DNA of 63,349 nucleotides, filler included, from Hausera hauseri (Eukaryota), in assembly GCA_046269625.1 (NCBI GenBank). It is 11 parts of 11 records of this genome, joined end to end, with 100 filler letters (N's around TTAATTAATTAA, not from the genome) between each part and the next. Parts side by side here need not be neighbours in the genome. Positions count along the whole stretch, not along the records: positions 18,997 to 23,776 come from JBJURY010438138.1; positions 23,877 to 32,122 come from JBJURY010716547.1; 9 more parts are not named here. One strand, written 5' to 3'. Shown here piece after piece: positions 4,826 through 26,735 of the stretch; the stretch's first letter is position 1, and every line of letters starts with the position of its first letter. Below the pieces are notes generated by a model that ran no database searches, was not told the DNA's origin, and saw nothing but the letters and a program-made list of their open reading frames with translations. The translations under genes were made by a program, and so were the position numbers.

Positions 4826-7800
4826 AAAGTCTTATGAAATTCTTTGTGACAACATCTGTGTCGTATGGGGAAAATGCTGAAAATTTTGTAAAATTGCATA
4901 TGGAGAAAGAATTATCCGGTAGACACATTCGATCGTCAATAAAGATTACCTATGGTCAAAATGCAGATCTTACTACGAAGAAGAATGTCAAAGAAATCGA
5001 TTTAGAACTCTATGGTGGTAACATGGTGAAAGATAATCTCGACGTAACAGAAGGCAGTCTTATATTTAAGTTACCGGCGAAAAATTTGAATTATGAAGGT
5101 CGATTTAAAAGCGAAATCGGTAACAAGATGGTTCGAATGTCACTCGTATTGGACAAAGACCAAATGCCTCAATTCAATCTGAAAGTGGATTATGTGCAAC
5201 CAAAACGCTATTTGAAAGATACGGATTGGGAAATTTCTTTTTCAATACCAAACCATGTTGCATCTGTAAAATGGAATCTTAAAGAAGTTGACGTGAGAAA
5301 ATTCGAGTACGGCCTTGAAGGTTTGTATAACTTTCACACGCTATCAATAAATGGTGTCCAATTACAAATATCAGACTTAAATTACGAATCAAATCTAATG
5401 ATCAAACTACCAGTGATTAAAGATTTACCAAGAAAATTGAAAATCGGTCTAAAAATCAATCTAGAAGATTTATCAAACGGACGAATTACCGGTGAACTGG
5501 ACTATCCCGATACTAAATTCAAATATTCCATGGATACGATATTTTCGTTTGCACCACGAAACTTTTTACGTGCAACAACTCAGGAAAATAATTCAGTTTT
5601 CAAATACAATCTGAAATTAAAAGGAATGGAGTATGTCATGAGATCGAAATCCGTTTTCACAATTAATCCGGAAGAATTCCAAATTTATTTAAACTACCTC
5701 TGGAATTTAGACCAAAATCCAGATAATGAATACATACTAAACATTCAGTCGGTTAATAAAAGTCCAAATCCAAGAAAATTTGATAATTCGGCTCGATTCA
5801 CTGTTAAATATCCGGGAAAGAAATATTCAATTGAATTTTTATCAGAATTTCAATACACGCAAATGATGGCTCAAATCAATCTATCATGGGATAAAAACCG
5901 ACGAATTAATATCATTACACAGTATGAAATCGATAACAGCTGGACTCAGAAAGGATTGACGTCATCAATTACTGTTAAAACTCCTTTCACTGGCTACGAA
6001 ATGACTCATCTTGGTCTTAATGTCATGGGACAGTTACGATATCGAAAAATCGATATCGAATATAAGTGGGGTAATAACAAAAAGGTACTATTTGATTTAG
6101 TCATCCAACCTCGTAGTTCAAGTGATTTTAGTCTGAATGCAAAACTCGTTACACCATTTAAAGGCATGACTTTAATCACATTTAATGCGAAACACATGTA
6201 CACAATGAATTCGATTTTAACCCAGTCAAATATTGAAATCGGCCCGTCACGACGATACCAAGTCAAATTTGAAGCAATTAACAATAGCGATGAAACAAAA
6301 CGCGATATTTTTGCCAATCTGTTATTAGAATCCGGTGATATTTGGCCGATTAAATTATCGTTGATGCATAAAGATAATCTGGTTCATTTTGAAACGCAAT
6401 TCGACGCAACATGGAAAAAAGATGACTCATTAAACTTTAAAAGCAAAATTTCTTTTAGCTTAGCAGATTCGGAAATAAACAGTAACGGTGACATTGAACT
6501 GCAATCGACCATAGCCATTGTAAAACAAATGAAGACCATATGGTCAGTTGAACAGAAAAATGGTAATCTTGTCGGAAATCTTGACGTTCAATACAAGTTC
6601 CGAAAAGCTGTACAAATGGTGATTAAGGGATTTTATGAAAAAGAAGACCAGACCGATAAGTTTGATCTAAATGGCTTTGTCAAAATTCTGGAACTACCAT
6701 CAATAAAAGTTGTGAATGAATTTGTCTTTAGTCAAAAGTTGCTTACAAAACGTTTATCAATCGAAAAAGACTCAAATCTGATCTATTCACATGATGTTTT
6801 ATTCAGTCCACGAGAGTATAAGATTAAAATCAAATTACCCCAAATGACATTCAAAACCATTGATATTGAATCGACTTGGAAAAATGAGGGAAAAACTACG
6901 ATCACGAATTCTTGGATACAATTCGGTGACAAGTATATCGTTAAAGAAACGAGCGTTATCAAGTTCATTCCACTGAAAGGATATTCAAATTTCGAACTGG
7001 AAATCAACTCGAATTACTATTCCGATTATTTGAATATGAAAACGATATCTGTCTATAAGAAAGTCGTACTAAATGACGTAATTGGTAAGCTGGAATTGAA
7101 AGCTAGTTCAAATTCACAGGATTTATTCACATTTGAATTCGATTTAAATACTCGAAACGGTATTCGACATAGAACTGCATTGAGAACGTACCTGGAAAAA
7201 CTACGACACGTCGAATTCATGTCAAACTATAAACCCGAAAATGACAAAACACCAATGACAAGTGAATTGAAGTTTCTCTTTAATGATGTCCTGGAAATCA
7301 ATGCTAACACTATAATCCGATATCCAGGTGTCATCAAATTAGACTATTCTGTCAAATGGCAATCCGTTTATAAATATTTCAAATTCATTAGTGACATTCA
7401 AGTTATTGGTTATGAGCATTTGTTGGACACAAACTTATTTGGTAGTAACATCAAACTGGTCAGTTCCATTGAATCGAGAGGAGGAATGGCGTTCAACGTT
7501 GATATAAAAACCAAAACCAGCTGGTTGGAATCGTTAACGATCGTTGGTCGAATGAGTAAACGAGATAGATTTTTGACATTCGTCTACGTGATACCTTTGG
7601 AAACAAAAGAAGTCATAAAATTTACTTTCCATCTAGTTCAACATAAATTGGTAATTGAATACAACACGAAATCATTTAGTAACGGTGTTCTACGTCTAGA
7701 AATGATCACAACGAAATACATGAATTTATATATTGACTTCAACTATAATGTTCAACTGAAATTTAAATACACGGGCGATTTCAAAACCATGCAACATACG

Positions 7801-7872
7801 AACGAAATCAAAGTAATTGTTGGTGATAAATCATTCGAAATGGAAAATAAATTCAAACTTAATGATCCAATT
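4826..7872 (+). CDS. Apolipophorin/large lipid transfer protein-like beta-sheet region, 5'-partial (segment 1)
   Basis: Open from the contig edge for >1000 codons; amphipathic beta-strand pattern with recurrent TPF-type motifs (VKTPFTGYE, LVTPFKG). Confidence 0.65.
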
Positions 7873-7968
7873 TATGTAATTGCATTTTATTCATGTATTT
7901 TTTGTTGTGATAGTTCAATTAGTTGTATGGAGTGTTATTTTTTGTTATTTTTCATGACNNNNNNNNNN

Positions 7969-10900
7969 AATTCAAACGAGTCAAATGGAGATATTTCCTG
8001 TTGGACAGCAAAATGAATACGAATATCTGGTCGAAATTTTCATCGCACAATATCGGCATCGAATACAACATCAAACCGAATACGTTTGAAGCAGAACTCA
8101 AAGCGTTTTGCAATGACCGATACATAAAGTTTAAAGGGCAATTATTTTCTCGGTCCGATGTTACCGTTGAATTTAAGTTAGAAACGTCTTTCCCGGTATT
8201 GAAAGAAATTATCTTGGATATTCGAACGAAACAAACGAAATTTCCGCAAAGTGCAATTTATGCCATTAAACTGTTGTCCGTTGTTCATGATAGTAAATTT
8301 CATTTTTCAACGTCACTTGAATGGAACAAATTCAATTATATCGTTTACGAAATGAATCTTGAAGCTCGAACATCAAAAGACTCCTACATAATTCAACCGA
8401 AATTCTTAAAACTGACCCATCAATATTTCAAAGACGATTTGAAAGAGATGTTTGAAATGACTTGGTCAAAAACCACTAACGTCAAGATGCAGCTTGAGAT
8501 ACCATTAAAAATCAAGTCAAGAAGTATATTCGAATTAGAAACAACGATTAAAGCGTTTGGCAAAATATCAGCTGATCTGAACATTGACTTTTCAATGAAC
8601 GACCAGAAATCCCTTTTACTTCGAATTGATAAAAATACTGATCGTTTGATTGCCGCTGAAATTGAATTGAAAAAGGATGGTCAGAAAATGTGGCTAACAA
8701 ATTCAATCGAGTATGCAACAGCGTTCAGAAATAAACTCGATTTGAAAACTGACATGTCGAAACCGGACGCAATAACTCTTGAAGGAACCCTGACAAATTC
8801 TTATTTAAAGAACAGTATAAAACTTAGTGCTTCACTAGACCGTGGTAATAAAGAAGGAACAATTGAACTAAAAGGCTTAACCGGAAAAAGCATTGCTCTG
8901 TCCGGAAAACTGCTGACGAATCAGTTTGAATTACGATTAACGTCTGAATTTGCTAATCTGTTCTTAAGAGTTTTCACCACATCGAGTTCTGTTGAATTGA
9001 AAATCACAGCTGACTCGAAAATCAATTTCGAATTGGATACTAAAATAAGCAAAGAACCATACGAATTCTACGTTCGTGTTAATGAACATTTTGTCAAATT
9101 ACTCGTGGCTAAAAATTACGCAATCGATTTTAAGTTCAAAGTCGAAAACCTTGAAGGAGCTTTAGATTCAAGTTTAGACTTTACACGGAACAGTTTTGAC
9201 TTTACAGTGAAAGGTACTTCAAGTTTAAATGAATGGAAATCTTTCAACGGTAAGCTCACTTACGAAGCCAAAGATACAAAGATTATGGCAGCGTCAAAAT
9301 TTACGCAAGAAAATACGGAAGTCTACAAAGCACGATTTGACTATGATGCATCAAATTTTGTAAAACTGATATACAAAACCAAATGGGAAGTAATGAAATC
9401 CGGTACGTTGAAAGTTGAATATTCTGGTCTCCCTTCAAAATTAACAGTACAGTTGAATTCGTTGAGTTTAAACGGCAAAATAAGTCTCGATCTATCCATC
9501 AACGATTACAAAATTAAAGGTAGATTGGAATCGCCATTTTCGTTTGCAAAATACATTGAAATACAAGGTGAACTGACAGCCAATGAAAATGATATCAAAG
9601 GTACCGTAAAAATGGTGATAAACGATGTTAACAAACCGATAGAAGCCGGAATAAATTACGTTAGACGTCCGAACAAACTGACAATAGATATAAATACGCC
9701 GTTCGCTTCTCCAAACGACAAATTTAGCGTGTTCTACGAAACTGAAACGACAAAAACGGTATTCAAATTTTCACAAAACGAAAATACAATTTGGAAAATC
9801 TTGTACATGAAGCCATCAAAAGGACGCTACGATCTTGATATCGAAATAATGGTACCGAAAACACTCGTTGGAATTGAATTAATACTTTCGGGTAAACTTG
9901 ATTTGGAAAGTCCTATTAAGCTGTTTAAAACGTCACTAAAATCGAATTTGTTCTCCGAACTGTCGTTCGCATTAACGTGCAATCCAACAATTCACCAATA
10001 TTCCATTCAATTCGCCAATCCAACCAAAGGAGGTCAATTGGAATTAAGCATTTCAAAGGAAGATGATGGTAGCAAAATAAAATTTGAATCGAAGTTAAAC
10101 GACTTAGAATCATCAGTTGAATTTAAATATAACGTTCAAAATGTACTGAACATTCGTACAAGTCTATCAATAACAACCAATGCATATTTCGGCAAAGTAA
10201 CAAAATTCGAAATGTCGTATGGCCACATCGTCAACTTCCCAACGTTGTTGAATGTTGATTTAGCAGCCAATTTTAATGGCAGATCTTTCATTCGTAAAAC
10301 GGTAACATGGAAAAAGACCGGTGAATCGTTTGAGTTGTTATCAAAATGTATCTTAACGCCATACGATAAGGATTATGAAAGTCTACTGCAGATTTCTAAC
10401 AAGGACAATGAGGTGTTCGATTTCGTTGTTAAAATGGCTGAGATTTTACAAAGTGACATCAACGTTAAGTTGATTAATAAACTCGAAAATAAAAAGCTTT
10501 CGATCCGAACTCCATATTCAATAATACGGACAGTCGACGTTGGCATAAAGTCTGATAACTCCAATAATCAAAAAATTCGAACGATTTCCTTTGATTCCAA
10601 CGTGATGGGAAAATACGAAATGATTTACAACGAGCAATTATTGACCAAGTCAGAGATTAAAGCAACGGTTACAATCAACACTCCAAAAACGATAAATTTA
10701 ATATCTAGTGAATTTACTTTACGAAAAGAGATAAAAAATGAAATGGTCGATCTTAAATTTGAAATCAACAATGTACAATATTCGGCCAAGTATACCAGAA
10801 AAGACGGTGAACAACGGATAAAAATCAATTCGCCTCATGAATATATGCGTAATGTGGAATTTTCATTAAAACAATTGCAAAACGAACTCGACGCGGAAGT

Positions 10901-13900
10901 TAAATACAACAATATTTTTGCTACGATTAAAACTGTCTGGACAGAAAAATCCATATCGTTCGACCTACGAAGCAATTTGAATTATTTCAAAATTCTTTCT
11001 ATATCGGTACAAAATCCATACACAAACGATTTCCAGAAAACATTCAAACTGACTCTTAGCAAAGACTCCAAAATTCTTCAATTTGAAACCGTAATCAATA
11101 CGAAGAACAAACGTTTCGAATACCTGATGAAAAATGATCTGTTTGACTTTATTCCAAGTTCTCTTTCGGCAGTAGTTCAGTTGTCTTTTACACCGATTAA
11201 TGTTATTGTTAACTTCAAAGGAAACGATGTAAATTTGGTCAATTTCGTACTCAATGGCGATCAAATATCATACGAACAGTCGATCTGGTTTATGATTAAA
11301 GGTTCGTTAAAGAAATCGGAACTGGACTTTACTATCATTGACAAGAAATTATTCTCACTTCTTGTACAACAGAAATCACGAAATACTGTCGAAAGCCTCC
11401 TTGTATTAAATGGAGATCAGTACGACATAACAACTGCTTTTGAACGAAGTTTAGGCCAATCAATGTTCAAATTATCGGTGAAGAAAAACAAACTCGATAA
11501 CATTCTAAATATCGACACCGAATTCGTACCGTACCGGAAACTATTGGATATTGAGTTGAATTACTTGAAAAAATCCGTTTTTAAACTAAAACTAACGAAT
11601 GACATTTCAACGAACATAAAAACGTCTTTCGAATTTAAACTGATGTCTGTCAATTTAGTCGCTGATTTAATTACCGAAATTAAGTCGGATCTATGGAATG
11701 TGAAATGTTCGTGGAATTTGATGAAAAATGATCAGCAGTTGACTGTAGGTTCTTTAGAAGTCGTCCGGAAAATTTCCAATCCCATTAATTATTCGATGAC
11801 ACTCAATTTACAAAGTGGAGATTTTCAGTTTCAAGTTTTAAAATTGACGACCAGTGAATCTCTATTGAAAATTCGAACGCCATTTAATGGAATTGATTTG
11901 GATTTGGAAACGAAGCATTTGTACGATATGGAAAAGGGAGAATTTGTTTGTGAGTGTCGTGTGAAAAACAGTTTCATTGGTGAATATCGAATGAAAGCAA
12001 TCGTCTTGGCCCAACTTGATTTGGAATTCCAATTGACTCTGGCATCAGATAAACCTATTCTTTCCTTAAGATTTCTGTTCAATCGATCCGTTCCCAACAA
12101 ATATATCGGTTTAGCTCAAATTCAAATTCTATCGTTGGAAAAAGTTGAATTCCAAGTAAAACTAATTACAGCCGATATCATTCAACTTCTGCTATCACTC
12201 AAGACGCCTTTTGATTACTTAAAACACGTAGAATTGAAAAAGTCCCTTCGATATAAATCGTGGCTTGAACATAAATTCGATACAAGAGTTACATACGATG
12301 GATTCACGCAGTTAGTATTCCAAACTGGACATTCTATTTCTATGACTCAACGAATTTTACGGTTTGAAAGCAAACTTCAGCAAGAATATGCCGAAATTAT
12401 ATCATTAAAAATCGATCATTCTGGCAGTTACGATAATCTCGATCATTCGATTGTTTGGTTTTGTCGAAAGAACAAATACGGATATCGATTAAAAGGTGGA
12501 TTCAATCCTATGTTCAGAGGACAAGCAGAAGTATTTTCTCCCTACCACAAATTAGGACGGTTTGTCTTGGCTGGAAAACAATCCGAAAATGGCATGAAAG
12601 TTTTGCTTGAAAAAGACGGCGAACGAATTAGTGTTTTTGAATTTAATTCCAATTCATTCAGAAAAATGATTCGATTTGATTCGTCGAAAAATAGTTTTTA
12701 TAAACTTGAAATCAGATCTCGCCGAACAAAACGAAGTGCAGAAAATTATTTTAACTCGGAAATAAATTATGATGGAAAACCATACCTTAAACTGAACAGC
12801 AAGTTTGAATCAGCAAAAGATAAATACTCAGCAAAGTTCAATTTCCACTCACCGCTTGTAACAGAAAACCCTGCCGAATTGCTATTGAGTCATCATTACA
12901 AAGACAATACTTGGAAATTCAATCATCACTTGAAAATTAACAACATGGTTGAAAAATACTACAGATTGTTTGGAAAATATTTTAGAGAAAATTCAAGAAA
13001 CTTTAATGTTGACTTCAACACAGAAACGCCGAATTTCGGAGTACTCAATTTGTCATTTGGACATAAATTCGAAAATTCCAATCATCGAAGTCATTTTTCG
13101 TTGAAAAAAGAACAAATCAATGTGCTCAAATATAATGGTGAATTAAATCTTGTCGAAAGTGAAAACGCTTTAAATGGCGTTTGGAAATTTGAAACACCTT
13201 CAAGATCGATTGAAATACGTTCCGGCCATACAGGAAAATGGGATGATTTCCAACAGTCATTTGACATTATTTACAACAATGAGCAAGTTATCAAATATAA
13301 AGGATCATTCAAACCGGATGAGACATCCGAAATGGATATTGCAATAAGTTCGACAAAAAAGATTAAAATAGTCATTGATAGAAAAAATAATGCATTGGAC
13401 ATAACCTACAACGATTCAAACAAGAAATATTTGTTTAAAATTGGTAACAAAGCGGGAGTCATTCAATCGTCATTGGATTTAAACGATAAGAACGTGGCAT
13501 CTACCTCTCTTGGCTATGGAAAGCAACCACTATTCATAAAGGGAAACGTTTATGGTAATTCAGCGAATGTCGAACTTATGTTGGGCGATGAACTGATACG
13601 ATTATCGGCAAACTCAAACTTCGACATCATGAAAGATTTGACTCTCATATTAAAACCGAACAAAGTAACATTCGAAGTCACTATTAATAATAAGCCGTAT
13701 CAAATCGATATAAGTTACCACTACGCCAAAGATAACTTCTATGCATTGTTGGAATCATCATTTACAATTGTGTCTAAAATATCAATGCACGTGACACCAT
13801 CAGAACTGAAAAGCAATTTTAGCAAATATTTTCCCATATTGGATTACTTATTGATAAACAACCGATGTAAAGTTATCGGAAAAAAAAACAATCAATTACA

Positions 13901-14015
13901 CGTGTCAAAAAAGAAACCCGACCACTTGCAAAAACCAAAATCAGTCATCTATCGTTTAAAAAGTCTGCAACGTAGCCATATTTCCCAAAGTAAAGTCTTC
14001 AGTATAGTACAGTAA
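7969..14015 (+). CDS. Apolipophorin/large lipid transfer protein-like beta-sheet region (segment 2, after a 10-N gap)
   Basis: ~2000 uninterrupted codons of the same composition (ESPFS, INTPFA, IRTPYS, IRTPFN, LKTPFD); RRTKR furin-like site at ~12720-12734; the last ~60 codons probably are not part of the gene. Confidence 0.65.
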
Positions 14016-16949: not shown

Positions 16950-17905
16950 TTATGGGAGCACGTGTTGGCAGTTTTTATGTCAGCGACATTGGACATGTCA
17001 CTAAGTTTTCATATAGGTGACGTTCCACATCTCAAGTTTTCATGTTAGGATTTTCTCATGTCGGCAAGTTTTCATGTCGACATCCTTCATGTCAACAATG
17101 TTCAGGTCGACAACTTTAGTGTCGACAACGTTCATGTCAGCAACTTTTGTATGATGGTAAATTTTTATGTTGGTGTGGAATGTCAGTAAGTTTTCATAGC
17201 AGCAATGGTTCAAGTCTCAAGCTTTTCTGTTTGGGTTTTTTCACATTAACAAGTTTTCATGTCAACAACCTTTCGTGTCGACAGCAACTTTTGTGTCATC
17301 TTCAATATCAGTGACTTTGGTATGTTGGTAAATTTTTATGTCGGCGACTTTGGTATATCGACACAGAATGTCAGTAAGTTTTTACATTGACAAGTTTTCA
17401 GGTCGACATCCTTCATGTCGACAACAACTTTTGTGTTATCAATTTCCGTATCGGCGACTTTGGGTTTTTTCACATTGACAAGTTTCACATTGACAAGTTT
17501 TCATGTTGACAACCTTGATGTCGACAACTTTCAAGTCAATGGCAACTTTTGTGTTGTCAAGTTTTATGTCGGTGACTTTGGTATGTTGGTAAGTTTTTAT
17601 GTTGGCTGTGTTACACGTCTCAAATTTTCATGTTATTATTTTTCACATCAACAAGTTTTCATGTCGACAGTGGTCATGTCAGCGATTTTGTCATGCCGGT
17701 GACTTTTCATGTTGGCGATTTTCTTGTCGACAACAGTTGTAAGTTTTCATGTTAGGATTTTTTCATGTCTACAACCTTTATGTCGACAGTTTTGTTATGT
17801 TGACAACATGTATGTTCGTAATTTTATTCATGTCGATAACTTCCAGGTTGACAACTTTCATGCCAGCAAGTTTTCATGTTAGTATCTTTTCATGTCTCAA
17901 CTTTT
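16950..17905. repeat. Degenerate minisatellite (AAGTTTTCATGTCGACAAC-like units)
   Basis: Dozens of variants of aagttttcatgtc / gtcgacaac / gactttggtatg. Confidence 0.8.
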
Positions 17906-18100
17906 CCGCTGTACTTTTAAGAAGTCCCTCTCGGACGAGAAGGCATGTTTTGCACATGACACATTGCAACAGGTCCAACTGACGGTCGAAAGAACTCACG
18001 ACGTTCCCTTTTTTAAATTTCTTTTAAAACTTTTTCTTTTCTATTTCATTTTTTCTATTTCATTTCTTCCTTGACTTTTGTCACGTGAGTTTTTCCCCTT

Positions 18101-18500
18101 GCATGTCCCGACTTGCTCGCATGACGCATTCCCAAGTATGAGGAAGACGACCTAAACACCGCAGCACCCCTAATGAATCCAACCTTAAAAGAAAGTATGC
18201 CCTTTTACTGATCCGACTGACTCCCATGAACATGAAGAAGACGACCTAAACCACCTCCAGCACTCTTAAGATACCCGACCTTAACAGAAAATATGTACCT
18301 TCCGTGATCCGACTTGTCCCTAAACATGAAGAAGATGACCTAAACCGCCTGAAGTACCCTTAAGATACCCCCATCCCCCAACAGAAAATATGACCCGTGC
18401 ATGTCCCGACTTTCTCCCATAAGCATGCCCAAGTATGAGGAAGACGACCTAAACACCACCAGCACTCTTAAGAATCCCGACCGTAACAAATAATATGACT
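18101..18500 (+). repeat. Four tandem units of ~95-105 bp
   Basis: ATGARGAAGAYGACCTAAAC recurs at ~18138, 18232, 18326 and 18435 with conserved flanks. Confidence 0.85.
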
Positions 18501-18996: not shown

Positions 18997-19270
18997 CGTC
19001 ATCGGTAAGTTGATCCATTATAACTGACTCTTGTTTAAGAATTTGACCAATTAACTGGACTAAAGGATTTCATTTAAACTTTGGTTTGGATTCTTGTCCA
19101 AATGCTCCTATGCTGCCTGGGTCTGACACCGATGCAGGCTGCAGTTCATTCCGCAATGCCGGTGGTATTGATTCTAATTTGATAAACGATTTTTCTGATC
19201 CGGTATCAATTAAGGCATAGACTTCCCAATCTTGAATAGTAACTTTTGTGAAGGGTCTTCCTTCCATGAC
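18997..19270 (-). pseudogene. Retropepsin (aspartic protease), runs off the contig end
   Basis: GRPFTKVTIQDWEVYALIDTGSEKSFI; the frame continues to ..VIMDQLTDD at the contig edge. Confidence 0.85.
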
Positions 19271-19939
19271 TGATCCATAACAACTAGACACGTCCTTTGG
19301 TCGTTTAATCGAAGAAATTTTATGTCCGTTTACCGTTATTTTTGGTGGTTAAATAATATTCTCGGTCAGTTTTTTCAGTTCTTCGTTAGGATACAAATCG
19401 TTAACTGCCTTGTTATTTGCATTGTTTCTGATTAATGGTTCTTGTACTATTGAATTTTGGAACGATTTCATTCCTTGTGTTTCCCAGACTGTTGACCTTG
19501 TTTCTGTATTCCGAGCTATCCTCGGTGAGTACATTATCCCATGGTCATCTTGTGCTCGTCTTTGATTAGTGATCTGCATTTTCTTTAAGACTCCATATTG
19601 TCTTGTTCCTTCATAAGGATCTTCATAGCTGAAGGGTTTCTGACAGAATTCCTATCTATATGACATCATGGATGTTTTGTTACAGTCCTCGTATATCGGA
19701 GCCGTTGGCGGCATGATAGGTAAGGGTGCTCTAATTACGAAATACATTCTGTCTATTTTGTCGAGGATTTGATCTCCTCCCTTAGTCTCATCATCATCTG
19801 AATTATTTCTTCGTGGCATTGGTTTCTTAGCATTGTGTTTTAATCGAAATATGGGTCTTGCTCGACGTATATGATTATAATAGCTAACATGGCGTTCAAC
19901 GTCATTTTTCCATCGATTCTCTTCATAAGCTTTAAGCAT

Positions 19940-21752
19940 TTTACCAAATGGTGTGATAATTGCAGTTAGTATTTTACATGAAAATCATGTTAACGTAAAT
20001 ATCTCGTATCCATTAATTACTGCTTGTATGGCGGCCTTAACCATCTGTATCAGAAAATATATTGCTAAAAATCCAGATGAAACTTGTCCGAAAATCAAAA
20101 ATCTTCCCCAAATTTTGTAAAGTATTTCCGTTGTTACTCTCTGATAGTGGTTTACGCCAAATAATGATTCCCATTTAGCTTGATATCGTGTATCATCTAC
20201 TACCGAGGCCATGGCTCGATTCAATTCATGTGTCCGCTGTCGCGGAAAAGCGAGAAACCGTCTGAAGGCTTCGATTTCCTTTGGTTTGTATATGCCTTTC
20301 GAGAAGGTGTCTTGGAATTTCTCGTCTGTAATTACCTTCGCGAGATTTGTTCCTGTCAAATTATTTGGAGCGGCAATGATACCTCCATTTGGTAAACTGA
20401 CCCAGTCTGTCTCACTTCGTCTAAACATGGGTTCGCCTAAGCTTGCTTTAGAATTTTTAAGGATAGTCGGTTGGGTGGCTTTATCTAGTAACACTCTTGT
20501 CAATGATGCAGGTAATCTCGGAGTATTCTGATAAATAACAGGAAGTTCCTGTTAACAACGTTTTACTTCCACGTTTATGGGTACATCTTTCTTTTCACAT
20601 TAATATGTTAGTAATACTTCGCCTGCTACCCGGCCAAAAATTCCTTTTCTCATCGAAATTATTGGTGAAGCCAGTTCTGGGTTTGCATAATTAAGAGCCA
20701 TCTTCGTCTTCATGATTTCAGTGTCTAATTTGCAGTCGTTCATTATCATTTTGTGATATAATTCCGTTATTCCGACTTGTCTTTTATAGTAGAAGAAATC
20801 ATCACTATTTTTCAGGTTATCTTCAATACGTACATATTGTGTTTCTAGTTTATAAATTTTTGCGCTTATTTCTGTTTCTTCTACGAAAAACGCTTCATAA
20901 TTCGTAGCAAACATCACTACAAACATCGAGACATCATTTCTTTTTTAATAAATTTCAATCCATGCTGATCCGAAATTAATATAGTAGGTGTAGAGTGCTC
21001 TGATACATCCTCACGAGTCCTCGAATTGGTTTCTGATTTATCCACATATCGCTTTCCTGTAGTCTCATTGAACCTTAGTTCTTTAATTTTAATAAAATTA
21101 CAACTTTTTCCAGAAGGAGGTTCCCATATTATAACCGAGCTTCTAAAAGCACAGGTTCCTTCTTGTAAATGGCATTTCTCATTTTCAGTGTATAACTTAG
21201 TAACACTATGGAACATTACTTTCTGTGACCGCATCTCTGATTTGTAGAAGTCTACGACTACCACATTCGGTTGTAATCATTTTCCGGTATCGTATTCTGC
21301 TCCATAACAATGTCCGCTATGCATATTTAATCTTCCAGCCACTACCTTGTTTGCCCTAATTATTTTTCCTGGTTGCATCTCCAACTCCATACTGTCCCAC
21401 CGTATCTTTTCAGTTTCTTTGGCTTGTTTGCAGTGCTGGCGTTCTAATTTCATCGGAATTAGTGGAGTGATTGGCTTGATTATGGAGAAATATCCATGCA
21501 CTAATCCACAGTGAAAAATACTACGAGATCGTCTCAACATACATTCCACTCCGTCCAAAGATATCAATTCTTGTTGTTGGTATAGGAAATAGTACTTTTC
21601 TTATGTTTCCAATTTGTGTGATCTGGCATCTTCACATGCTTCTAATTCCATTAGTGAATATTTTTGTCCAAGCTTGAATCTGTCACAATCGTAGACGGTA
21701 ACAGCACCTATCTGTTTTATTAACATCATTATAGTGAGTAAGCTAATTAACC
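19940..21752 (-). pseudogene. Envelope glycoprotein resembling chuvirus G / herpes gB (class III-like)
   Basis: Internal signal-like WLISLLTIMMLIKQIGA then VTVYDC; Cys pattern incl. SIFHCG, CHLQEGTC..IIW, GEVLLTY.C..C.QELPV; C-terminal TM KIWGRFLIFGQVSSGFLAIYFLIQMVK. Confidence 0.7.
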
Positions 21753-24700
21753 AATTTGATTCACTCTTTTTGTTGCTATTGTCTGTTGTCGTCAAGTTCC
21801 GGAAGGCGTCTTCAAGTCTATTCTTACCACTCCTCTTATCGTCTTCTTTGTTAAACACTTTTGGCCAGTTTACCTCACACGGGAGTTTCCTAGATGCCTT
21901 TCGCGCCAAACTCGTAGCTCGATTTAATTCATTTTCCCGATTGGGATTTGTTTTGATTGCCACGTATAATAATACTTTTCTTAGTTCTTATTTCGTATTC
22001 CCCACCATGATCTTCTCAACTACGGCGTCATCCGTTAGGCTGCTTTTCGAGAGTTTGAAACGCGAACTTCTCATTGTTCTGGCTGCGTTAAATATTGTCT
22101 TTTCTTTGTTGTCTAATGTATCTCCACGGTGACTCAAATAATTTACGATACGTATTAAGTTTTTCATCAATTCGCTTAATTCTTTATTATCTGTACTAAA
22201 AGTAGGAATCGACGTCTTTCTTAACTCTTTAATCAGTTCTCCGTCATAGTCGATTTCTTTTTGGGGCTTTCTAGGTCTACCTATTGGGCGTTTCGGTCTT
22301 GGGACATTAGGTGGAATTACGCTCAACGGTACTAGATTATTGTCGTATTGTTCCTTGTCTTCATCCGTCTGTAAATATTCGAAGTACGTTGCTGCATCCC
22401 GTACTCCCATGATTTGTCCTACACATTGTTCCGTTTTAGCCTTTCGCGTGGCATCTTTCTTTGTCTGTTCATTGGCTATTATTACTACAATCCGATTTGT
22501 TTCGTCGGGAATAATCCCAACATCTATTAACTGTTCTAAATCGTCGAGTATTCTTCTTCTAAAATAAAATCTGTAATTTAGCTCATTTGTTCCATCGTTG
22601 TTTAGTAACCATTCTCTTACAACCTTTACGTAGGAATGAGTAGTTAACTCACATTCTTTTTCTTCCATCCAGTCGGATGATATCATTACTTTCATCACTA
22701 CTTCAGGTTTGGTTCTCAGAATATTCGCATACTTCTTTATCAGGAGTTTTGGTACTGTGTTGTAAACTGTATTCTCTCTAGATAATTTAGTTAAGGTCCG
22801 AATGAGTTTTCTGAGCTTGTTTTCAGTCATATTCACGATTATTGATTCCATCAAGTCCTTCTCAGTTGATTCTGAGTCTAGGAGCATCTCTACGTTGAAT
22901 TTCCTGTTCTACGGATACCTTTCTATTTTTTCTAGGTGTACTGGAGTTACCTGATTTTCGGCCTTTATCTCTTCTAAATAATCATCCCATTCTGGTTTAT
23001 TCATAATATCTGGAAGTCCATAGTCTACTAGGGCCGTATTCGTCCTTTACACATTTTCTTGAATTTCTCTCAATTTTGGTTGTATTTCTTTCATCTGTGT
23101 AGTTCGGAATCCTATTCCGTTTTCACAGGCATATTGAATCATTTTCAATAATTTGCTTAATTTATTAGAATCGATGAATCCCTTTTGATGATAATCGGTT
23201 ATTTCGAAAATTACATCTCTTTTCCATCTTTATACAAATTCTCGCTTATTTTTGATTTCTAACTCCGCAAAAGCGTATTTGTTTCGGTAGACTTCAAACT
23301 CGTTTGTTAGTTCATCTAGTCTCGTTGCTCTTCGTTTTGTTTTAATACATGTTCCTTATACTTTCTGTATCTTGGGCATCAATTGCCTCATCTTCTCATC
23401 ACTAATCTCTACCAATTCTACCAATAGATAGGCTAACTCGTACATCTCATTTATGACTTTTGAGTAGGGGTCCATTGCATCCGACAATTTCTTTACGAAC
23501 TTGTGTTCCTGAAAGCTAAAATGTGGGTCGTCTCTTATTTTTGTCAACTTGGTATGGAAATTCTGGTCTGATCCGGTCATCCATTATTGTGGTTTATGCA
23601 AGAATTTTATTGCGCCTGTTAACGTATCTCGATGTCCGGGACAGATGTCTAAGATTTCAATGTCTTGGGCAGCGATCTTGTCAATCGGTTTTCCGTTATG
23701 TATTGGATTCCTTCTAGTCGAGCAACCTTCAACTTTGAGTTTACATCGTAAATCATGTTCCGTTTTTCCGTGAAGCNNNNNNNNNNNNNNNNNNNNNNNN
23801 NNNNNNNNNNNNNNNNNNNNTTAATTAATTAANNNNNNNNNNNNNNNNNNNNNNNNNNNNNNNNNNNNNNNNNNNNTGGATGCCGCTGCGAGCCACTGAA
23901 TGCTTCCTCTGTCCAACTGGAAAAGAAAAGCCGGGGCAAAGAAAATAAGAGTGGTTTTGGGATGAGCAAGAGAACTGGGGGAGGAGGGAGGATGTGTCGT
24001 GTTTTCAAGCTAGGTGACACATGCTGGGACTCTTCCTCTCCTCCTCGCCGCGGTGTCCTCATTACAGTTAATGCAAAGCTGGTGGCAGGGGGCTGTGCTG
24101 GGTCGACTGGTTGACTTCTTTGTTGTGACGGGGGTTCGCTCTTGGTGCTTCCTTGCGCTGTTGGCAGTTAGGTAGGCACGCTCAGCTGAATCTTCCTTGC
24201 TGGGTTTCGGTAACCTCTTTGGATTGCGGGCTGGTTATGGGACTGGGGGTTGGGTCTTGGGGGTCTGGGCAGCTCTGGGGCAGGTGGACTGTTGGTCCCA
24301 GTTTCTGGTGGTCCTCTGGGCTCTGTCCCTTCATGGTCTGGGGCTTCCCTGGCCTGACAGTCTGTTTGGAGGAAGATGTATTGGGGCCTCACTACCTGGG
24401 TGTTGTCTTGTGTATACTTGGTGTATATCTCCCATATCTTCTAATCTTTCTTTTAATGTTTTCCATTATACTCCTTTTTCTTCTTTGTTTCTCTTCTTTT
24501 CTATATTTATATCTGTTTTATATTAAAAAAGCAAACAGGGATAATGGATGTGGTGCAGTGGGGGCAGTCACGCTCGGTCCCCCACCCATATCATTCATTG
24601 GCAGTGCATTAAGGCTTGGACCACTTCTCAATAATGAAAAGACAGCTTTCTGATCAGAGTTATTACAGTTCTGAGGTGATACATAAGTTTTGTGTGAATT

Positions 24701-24799: not shown

Positions 24800-26735
24800 T
24801 TTTTACGTCAACTGAACGGATTTCACTAATTCCTGAACAGCTTTGGCAATTTGTTTTTTATGGTCCATCTAAGTTACGAAAGATGCGGTTTCCGAAAAAG
24901 TTGATAATATCGTAGCAGGTGTGTCGAATAATTTTGAAATTGACGAACCGAGAGGGAAATTTATTGACGGATAAAATGGTAAATTGAATATTGTGCCAAA
25001 TATTAATTTACTAACAGAATTTTCAGCCCCAGTATGCTGATCGATGAACGACATGTGCAACGGATGCTGCAGTGACAGCCAAGCCGAATGAAGATTCTGG
25101 TTGAAATCCCAACACCATTTGTTGAATATCGGATCGGATTCGCAATTGTAGATCTTTTTTCTTGACGTAATGGCCACCAACTGTTTGGAATCGGAACTGT
25201 ACGCCAGTGCTGAAAAGTGTTCGTTGCCGAATGATTTCCGTACGACAGTTCCCTTCTGCATGGTGTACGTATATATCGTTCCATCCATTGTGCAGAATAC
25301 AAATTGATTGCAATTCGGCGAGACAGAAATTTTGTTGACATTGTGCAGAGAAACCGTACCGATTTTTGGTTTTCGAATGATCGTTGAACTTCCATTTGGA
25401 AATTCATATAGCAAAATTCCGGATGAATTTTCTTCGATTTGCTCAGAATACAGTTTGTACGACGCTGCTAGAACGAGATAAGACGGCGATTCCCGACTGA
25501 AGAATTTCATCAAATATGCTGCGGGTAACTTCAATGATGGACCCGTGCCGAGTATGACATGGTCAGACAATTCTGAGGGACTGTTGGAATAAAATCAACG
25601 AACGGACAATTTAAGAGAGACTTCGGAAAGATTAAAATCCAATTTCAGAACGTGTGTTTCACTAACTGTCGAATAAGCAAAATAAACCAAATCATCTGAA
25701 ACCGCCCATGATTGAATATGTTCGTTTTGTCGAGTAGCAATCGAACATAAATGTTGTTTGTACGGCTATTGTCGTTGTTCATCGGTGACAAATGCCAATT
25801 CATAAATATCTACTTTCAGTCCATTTTGGCAAAATAAAATATAACTTCTACTCAATTTACAGTAATGCACTTCGTTTGGGACTTCCGAATCGAGTTTGAA
25901 AGATCGATTAAGAAACGGGAATTTTTCATACAAATAAAATCCATTCAAATCGCCTTTATCACCAGCCGAAAGCAAATAGTTATCCATTGCAACCAATGCG
26001 CGCATATCACCATCCATATTAAGTGACTTTGGATTTCGTCCATTTATTCCCATTCTTTTTCGACTGAATAATCACCAGCTCGACACCGGCAGCAAATACA
26101 CATTTCGGGGTGGCATATACTGCTAAAATGTCGGCAGTATGAGTTTCAATTCTTTCAATAACACCGATTGTGTCAATATTCCAAAACGTAACGCAACCTT
26201 TACTGTCTCCACTGACTAACGTATTACCATAGAAATTCATTGTCCAAATTATTGTATTGGATTTAAGACTTTCGGCTGGCAATTCAAAACATTTTGCTGA
26301 TCCATTTAAAATATCCACTTTGTACAATAGCCCCTCCGAACCAGCGAATACGTTATTTCGACATCGTTTATTGTATTTTAAAGAAAACGCTGTTTTTTCA
26401 AGAGCATGAATACATTTTGCGAAATTCAACTCCGTAACGTAATTGTAAATGTTTAAATAGCCTTTTTCACATCCAACAACAATTGTATTTTCACACTGGA
26501 CAGTGGAACGAGCTATAACATTAGATAGCATATATGTCATGTTGATCTCAAAATTTTTCGATGCGGTAATACCGAATAATTTCAATTCATTGTTAATTTT
26601 TATAAATTTAACACTCTATGGAATTATATTTCGTACGATAATTCGTCGCAGATATAAAAAATTGTCATTATAAATTTCAACGGTTCCATTTTCTTTACCT
26701 ATAACAATCAATCGTTGCATCAGCGAGAGAATTTC
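24800..26735 (-). pseudogene. UTP4: UTP4/cirhin-like WD40 protein, disrupted
   Basis: IGKENGTVEIYN; IIWTM..TLVSGDSKGCVTFWN..HTADILAV..VFAAGV; DMRAL; WAVSDDLVYFAYST; several stops and frameshifts. Confidence 0.75.

Follow-up and report, generated by a model that had tools for sequence, protein, structure and literature searches.

Middle of a dead, probably Burro-like GAG-ENV-POL retrotransposon, with its envelope in frame ahead of the protease, in a Hausera hauseri assembly

In a stretch of 63,349 nucleotides from the Hausera hauseri assembly GCA_046269625.1 (here called the window), one contig, JBJURY010438138.1, carries a decayed retroelement in which an envelope glycoprotein (Env) stands before, and in frame with, a retropepsin. 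The window consists of 11 contigs joined by N44-TTAATTAATTAA-N44 spacers, and the element fills one of these entirely (18997-23776, minus strand), so that the neighbouring contigs have no linkage to it. Since both ends run off the contig, this is an internal fragment, very probably the middle of a dead copy of a GAG-ENV-POL Ty3/gypsy long terminal repeat (LTR) retrotransposon (endogenous retrovirus-like), similar to Burro of planarians and derived from an invertebrate animal, possibly a flatworm. A ubiquitin-like (Ubl) domain, an internal signal, a gB-type Env, a membrane anchor, a spacer and a protease were once encoded in one frame, and intact relatives encode Gag with CCHC knuckles, accessory domains, Env, one or more proteases (PR), reverse transcriptase (RT), RNase H (RH) and integrase (IN) as a single stop-free open reading frame (ORF). 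By sequence comparison, the copy is likely a member of the gB-type GAG-ENV-POL Ty3/gypsy group. The layout is not new; the copy is a decayed, divergent addition to this known group.

The coding sequence lies in two minus-strand frames, one from 23775 to about 20920 with 8 internal stops, and the other from there to 18998 with 6. The frameshift is located by tblastn with intact relatives, which switch frame between 20923 and 20914. Together, these frames hold 14 stops in about 1,593 codons, whereas 100.7 are expected from the triplet counts of the contig itself (P = 2e-28). Base composition is even along the contig (GC 0.35-0.40 and A 0.35-0.41 on the coding strand), and no LTR-like repeat was found inside it, nor any repeat longer than 31 nt. 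On the minus strand, the order is upstream region, Ubl module, internal signal, glycoprotein, membrane anchor, spacer and retropepsin. An earlier note on this DNA, made from the sequence alone, had described a single frame of about 1,590 codons broken by 14 point stops and one frameshift near 20920, and had given the same domain order except for the Ubl module; the frames bear out the former, and Pfam, hydropathy and a protease profile the latter. The copy has decayed through point mutation and one indel, and is unable to make the polyprotein.

The glycoprotein is preceded by an internal signal-peptide-like segment (21703..21756, minus strand; hydropathy 1.96; hydrophobic stretch at residues 676-694), after which comes the conserved Y/F-D-C start of the ectodomain. 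The same layout was seen in 16/17 relatives examined, the remaining one (P0004) having been missed by the script filter. The ectodomain (20105..21702, minus strand) contains 4 stops and the frameshift, and is matched on both sides of the latter by Pfam PF24664, Monjiviricetes_fusion (57.3 bits, E 1e-15, and 127.4 bits, E 6e-37; cut-off 27). All 10 cysteines of its first half are conserved in 12/12 aligned relatives. It ends in a transmembrane helix and a following amphipathic/hydrophobic segment (19964..20104, minus strand, 1 stop), recognised by hydropathy and lying inside the PF24664 match. One relative, P0010, gave matches to each half of the query Env (E 6e-33 and 8e-52) and was modelled from a 90-row alignment with a mean predicted local distance difference test (pLDDT) of 79.9. 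The predicted fold resembles herpesvirus gB, which accounts for every listed Foldseek row (best E 3.4e-13) and for all top five VIA-align rows (Z 9.8, root-mean-square deviation (rmsd) 9.6 A, 424 aligned). This and the PF24664 match agree with the chuvirus/gB-like class III fusogen proposed in the earlier note. Against PDB sequences, the first half of Env gave no match better than E 0.38, and no furin-type R-x-K/R-R site was found in the ectodomain of the query halves or of 4 relatives.

A spacer of low conservation, about 230 aa long (19265..19963, minus strand, 2 stops), separates the Env anchor from a retropepsin with DTG at 19207-19199 (18998..19264, minus strand, 1 stop), which is cut by the contig end. 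The Pfam RVP match here falls below its cut-off (18.8 vs 20.7 bits); the relatives' protease profile finds its best place in the window at 19264-19007 (18.3 bits, independent E-value 5.5e-7). Spacer and protease together gave 0 matches at E<=1 against PDB sequences, and the spacer alone has no significant similarity to the relatives. The distance from anchor to protease is 280 aa in the query vs 108-368 aa in 18 relatives, and CCHC knuckles occur in 0/18 of their spacers. A Gag profile, which recovered a left-out relative at 49 bits, found nothing on the contig, and neither the spacer nor any other part of it showed a CCHC knuckle. The tail between transmembrane helix and retropepsin is much as first described, including its want of a recognisable capsid or zinc knuckle.

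Most of the relatives were taken from the best 150 of the 404 hits (E<=0.001) that HMMER gave when queried with the second frame. Among the best 10 hits, 9 have a retropepsin after Env within one stop-free ORF. We scanned 19 hits for domains, picked from the 150 by rank and length, and found Env followed by protease in 12/19, as well as in 6/6 new hits of a second search, for a total of 18 relatives. The other 7/19 were fragments, stopped at the anchor or close to it, or had integrase, DUF5641 or Ig domains before Env. Half of the relatives (9/18) continue into RT-RNase H-integrase, CCHC knuckles precede Env in 9/18, and five ORFs run the full CCHC-env-PR-RT-RH-IN course (P0003, P0025, P0154, P0155 and P0158). 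ORFs reaching from Gag to integrase are 2,146-3,761 aa long. Identity to the query in Env is only 26-34%. A single tblastn high-scoring segment pair (HSP) of P0155 runs from Env through the spacer into the protease (20908-19136; 599 columns, 25.5% identity). Because these 18 stop-free relatives join Env to protease, 9 of them reaching integrase and 9 carrying Gag knuckles, we consider the env-before-pol order real and not a tandem insertion. The earlier note had proposed such a polyprotein and thought a tandem second element unlikely, and both views hold up; where it looked to intact copies for the position of gag and of RT-RH-IN, the relatives place them before Env and after the protease, respectively.

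Phylogeny places the query among these relatives. From 34 rows (33 selected hits and the query) covering the second half of Env, IQ-TREE places the query in a 22-row clade with all 17 env-PR rows used (support 100/99), apart from 12 other glycoproteins, and within this in a 13-row subclade (95/97) with 7/8 of the Ubl-bearing relatives. FastTree on 138 rows, with 19/156 hits (including P0031) dropped as too short, agrees with this placement. Hits with integrase or DUF5641 before Env (P0087 and P0042) fall outside the query clade.

Several traits of the relatives are worth recording in their own right. Two to four retropepsin motifs follow Env in 9/18 relatives (P0004, P0005, P0006, P0011, P0012, P0153, P0155, P0156 and P0157), with one copy after the integrase in P0005, P0153, P0155 and P0156; the portions of the literature available to us make no mention of multiple retropepsins after Env. 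Seven of the nine integrase-bearing relatives (P0003, P0005, P0021, P0153, P0154, P0155 and P0158) have a further C-terminal region in which at least two hydrophobic segments are spaced by about 230-400 aa, resembling a second signal-ectodomain-transmembrane protein after pol. P0003 is labelled a hypothetical protein of a Flavobacteriaceae metagenome-assembled genome, and is most likely from a eukaryotic contig binned by mistake. Residues 100-300 of P0021 look by eye like a DEDDh-type exonuclease replacing the Ubl module before Env, with no Pfam match at E<=0.01. In P0073, immunoglobulin domains are fused ahead of the PF24664 glycoprotein, which might reflect either a fusion made by gene prediction or the domestication of an Env. 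Scans of bacterial and archaeal genome contigs for DNA context gave 46 and 21 pattern matches, none of which was confirmed.

The region before Env comprises 673 aa, which the earlier note had left as unknown. This needs correcting for residues 290-437 (22465..22908, minus strand), where a three-helix unit is followed by a ubiquitin/SUMO-fold (beta-grasp) domain (about 22704-22465). A profile of 8 relatives, made without the query, scores residues 304-433 at 41.3 bits, compared with 12.5 for the best of 300 shuffles. When residues 290-673 were modelled with AlphaFold2, only the first 148 of them were predicted with confidence, and these form the three helices and the beta-grasp (pLDDT in residues 290-437 mostly 70-95). 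In a fold search, this confident part matches SUMO1, ISG15, ubiquitin and Rad60-SLD2 (TM-score <=0.88 over the target), and the predicted structure aligns with Z 10.1 and rmsd 1.6 A over 76 residues (across these matches, rmsd 1.5-1.9 A at Z about 10). The ubiquitin family also came up when PDB sequences were searched with a profile. By eye, a Gly-Gly end is absent from the query and from 7/8 relatives. In six of its eight relatives (those with a Gag end or knuckle, or readable against it), the module lies after Gag and ahead of Env. A search for further carriers of the Ubl/BCL2 region gave back the query protein alone (1/2,063 candidates). This helical and SUMO/ubiquitin-fold module is common to the query and eight relatives, as in Burro.

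The remainder of the upstream region is less clear. Residues 1-289 (22909..23775, minus strand, 5 stops) belong by position to the accessory region between Gag and Env, and gave no Pfam match at E<=0.1, no PDB sequence match at E<=1, and no match to the Gag profile or to what 17 relatives carry upstream of Env. The three-helix unit (22705-22908, minus strand; also in 8 relatives) bears a tentative likeness, by eye, to the pattern of the TFIIS N-terminal/LEDGF integrase-binding domain; an atlas search with one relative gave no match to support this, and atlas searches with two parts of relative P0016 gave no usable match and one unnamed lead (0.76). Further along lies an AT-hook-like basic motif, RPIGRPR (22270..22290, minus strand); the pattern also occurs before Env in 4/20 relatives scanned. 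Finally, a helical region (21826..22233, minus strand) occupies the position of the BCL2-like domain in Burro. It scores 1.7 bits against a 4-row profile, within the range of shuffles, with an hhalign probability of 0.3% and pLDDT of 44-58. As it scores like shuffled sequence and folds poorly, we leave BCL2 without support in the query. Pfam Bcl-2 weakly matched 2/11 rows of the relatives' alignment, directly before the Env signal (best E 3e-5, on a fragment). BCL2 rows were absent from the fold-search lists for both models, although these were filled by Ubl and by gB or helices, and hence exclude nothing.

The closest published parallel is Burro, a single polyprotein of Gag, accessory domains (Ubi2/SUMO-like and BCL2-like), Env and PR-RT-RH-IN (PMC6431247, Arkhipova and Yushenova 2019). 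Its Env matches mononegavirus fusion proteins and lies in frame between gag and pol, and decayed Burro-type copies with stops and frameshifts are known from Dugesia japonica (PMC6431247). With Burro/GYPSM1, which are giant gypsy-like planarian elements, our contig shares an Env that stands in frame after the Gag side and ahead of the protease, its relation to mononegavirus fusion proteins, and an upstream Ubl (PF11976 in Burro). We liken the query to Burro on this order, Env type and Ubl, which is a resemblance and not a claim of membership in Burro proper. Related gB-type GAG-ENV-POL Ty3/gypsy elements have been listed in Nematoda, Bryozoa and Platyhelminthes (PMC13524379, Chary and Hayashi, eLife); in the rows examined, copy number in Schmidtea reaches 215. 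The earlier note had implied that env-before-pol was novel; this does not hold, as the in-frame gag-env-pol order is in print for Burro (PMC6431247) and gB-type elements have been catalogued (PMC13524379).

These gB-type 'errantiviruses' resemble the query in gene order, gB-type Env and signal-ectodomain-transmembrane layout (PMC13524379). By eye, the query and its relatives have short motifs and an 8-cysteine pattern in common with six Schmidtea Env sequences, the cysteine pattern being like that of the Schmidtea C1a group, while 18 nematode Env rows are unlike the query, with Nematoda_C1 rows 1-18 standing outside the comparison (PMC13524379). The elements of Chary and Hayashi are intact and mostly multicopy, whereas the query is dead and partial, and the words 'ubiquitin', 'BCL', 'in-frame', 'single ORF' and 'polyprotein' do not appear in their main text as available to us (PMC13524379).

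Other arrangements of env have also been described. A flipped env/pol order in nematodes is attributed to Sacco et al. 2022 (as cited in PMC13524379). Anakin BEL/Pao elements and chuvirus glycoprotein endogenous viral elements (EVEs) share the glycoprotein family PF24664 with the query (PMC7642597, PMC10084718). In these the glycoprotein stands alone or, as reported for Anakin, after the integrase. A canonical errantivirus or Anakin, with env downstream of pol, is ruled out here, as Env precedes the protease. The nematode endogenous retroviruses (NERVs) of Sacco and colleagues (2022) are said to have a continuous gag-env-pro-pol ORF. NERVs are marked by a Chromadorean host and a NERV-clade RT, and to our knowledge the Ubl module is not known from them.

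A number of points weigh against reading the contig as the middle of a Burro-like Ty3/gypsy element. It ends 673 codons upstream of Env and inside the protease downstream, and Gag, RT, integrase and LTRs would lie beyond; because these are off the contig, membership in Ty3/gypsy rests on the relatives. The Burro ORF1 is 4,873-5,140 aa long vs 2,146-3,761 aa in the Gag-to-integrase relatives, and the likeness to Burro is drawn from layout and domains. A BCL2-like domain, present in Burro, is hinted at in some relatives but not supported in the query copy. Nor did the contig give a BIR/RING, MATH, ankyrin or dUTPase Pfam match, another difference from Burro in the case of the first three, although such regions could lie off the contig. 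The gB fold was seen on the relative P0010 and not on the query's split Env, with a modest global TM-score of about 0.33-0.47 against post-fusion rows, as expected in a comparison between distant class III fusogens. In the tree, the query branch is long (1.84), which makes its exact place unsure. Lastly, a word-index search for longer proteins with the second frame gave 0/3,219 candidates; it was the HMMER search that found the relatives.

The best-surviving alternative, though an improbable one, is a separate GAG-ENV-POL lineage in a host other than a flatworm (e.g. of nematode NERV type, or bryozoan), sharing the layout and not Burro ancestry. GAG-ENV-POL elements are not monophyletic (PMC13524379), the query is far from all hits, and its lack of BCL2 support would fit. 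However, the helical and Ubl module and the Env tree tie the query to the clade bearing Ubl and BCL2, and by eye the Schmidtea Env rows resemble it where the 18 nematode rows do not (PMC13524379).

Far less credible is an origin from two elements or an assembly chimera, in which the Env of one element (or a chuvirus EVE) came by chance to stand in frame ahead of another element's protease. The spacer's dissimilarity to the relatives would allow this, and the contig is short. Yet the same Env-spacer-protease order is found in 18 intact relatives without a knuckle in their spacers, the P0155 HSP spans the junction, base make-up is even, and the frame is kept across the spacer.

Just as hard to credit is an ENV-GAG-POL design, in which the spacer would be a short and diverged Gag. 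Elements of this order with a short Gag are reported from oribatid mites (PMC13524379), and the spacer measures about 230 aa. But the mite elements are listed as having an F-type Env (PMC13524379), the relatives have Gag or CCHC before Env, and the spacer is silent to a Gag profile sensitive enough to find the left-out relative. The oribatid-mite type itself is ruled out by the gB-type Env and by the absence of Gag from the spacer.

Least credible of all is a living element with a variant genetic code that reads the stops as sense codons. Although 11/14 are TAA or TAG, all three stop codons occur in frame (9 TAA, 2 TAG and 3 TGA) alongside abundant ordinary glutamine and tryptophan codons (CAA 38, CAG 21, TGG 15), which argues for decay. 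The frameshift would also remain, the standard code gives stop-free relatives, and decay is seen in other retroelement pieces of the window too.

If the contig is the middle of a Burro-like GAG-ENV-POL copy, its intact ancestor would have dealt with a polyprotein threaded through a membrane. What is generally known of signal peptides and of viral polyproteins leads us to infer the following. The polyprotein would be made on ribosomes bound to the endoplasmic reticulum (ER), with Gag and the accessory domains remaining cytosolic. The internal signal would then thread Env into the ER lumen, where signal peptidase may free its N-terminus just before Y/F-D-C. The Env transmembrane helix would stop transfer, such that the spacer, protease and Pol emerge on the cytosolic side and stay attached to the Env tail until the retropepsin cuts itself and Pol free. 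Gag, Env and Pol would be made in equal amounts unless splicing intervenes. Env trimers could coat particles and fuse them with neighbouring cells, such as germ or stem cells. Because it has no Gly-Gly end, we see the Ubl as more likely to engage the ubiquitin/SUMO machinery of the host, as a protein-interaction handle, than to serve as a modifier that is conjugated or cleaved.

A bolder reading is also conceivable, though we consider it doubtful. The contig could represent a deep-branching, undescribed lineage of Burro-related enveloped retroelements in a host outside the triclad planarians. Across the wider clade, one membrane-threaded polyprotein might then combine Gag and a gB-type fusogen with a conserved helix and Ubl module for host control, with another membrane protein at its C-terminus and, in many cases, with several retropepsins in tandem; in it, Env trimerisation or the tandem protease copies might time maturation.

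Elsewhere in the window, most contigs resemble invertebrate animal DNA with decayed mobile elements. Ordinary decayed pieces of a gypsy-type family occur on three contigs (27.8-30.5 kb, plus strand; 36.8-38.4 kb and 44.4-45.5 kb, minus strand), with protease, RT, RNase H, integrase and Gag-like matches and weak DNA similarity between the three. The RT/integrase pieces among them (about 28.5-30.4 kb and 36.8-37.5 kb) are only 24-40% identical to the relatives and were not assigned to the Env element, being on other contigs and without Env. Decayed matches to protein-primed DNA polymerase B and endonuclease VII (41.0-42.6 kb, minus strand; 52.7-55.6 kb, plus strand; and 33.6-33.8 kb) are about 78-80% identical between three contigs, and we take them to be Polinton/Maverick-like. 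A host gene with WD40 beta-propeller ORFs and little or no intron sequence (24872-26615, minus strand) looks similar to UTP4. At 4828-14012 (plus strand), two very long uninterrupted ORFs (1,062 and 2,014 aa), set apart near an N10 gap, are rich in beta-strand-like repeats and have no Pfam match above cut-off; in appearance they resemble a large exon of an apolipophorin/ApoB-type gene. A neighbouring contig has a degenerate tandem repeat array at 16960-18500, with copies 64-83% identical. One contig carries phage genes (46797-52183, minus strand), among them one for a P22-like portal (E 5e-44) and one for a tail protein that bears a Peptidase_S74 chaperone, and the window hence mixes animal and phage DNA. 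Rfam gave 0 matches on the window.

A single dead fragment carries little weight, and its surprising layout is already in print. Its value is instead comparative, as it shows a Burro-type Ubl module spanning a diverse gag-env-pol clade whose members have only 26-34% Env identity to the query. No description of how a membrane-threaded Gag-Env-Pol polyprotein is processed was found in the parts of the literature available to us, and the compact intact relatives (2,146-3,761 aa) offer systems for asking how an LTR element does so. BURRO1 has been called abundant and active (PMC8532177), and the cargo of Burro1 is said to shield stem cells of planarians against apoptosis (cited second-hand in PMC13465017). 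Given this reported anti-apoptotic cargo, the accessory region is the part of such elements worth study.

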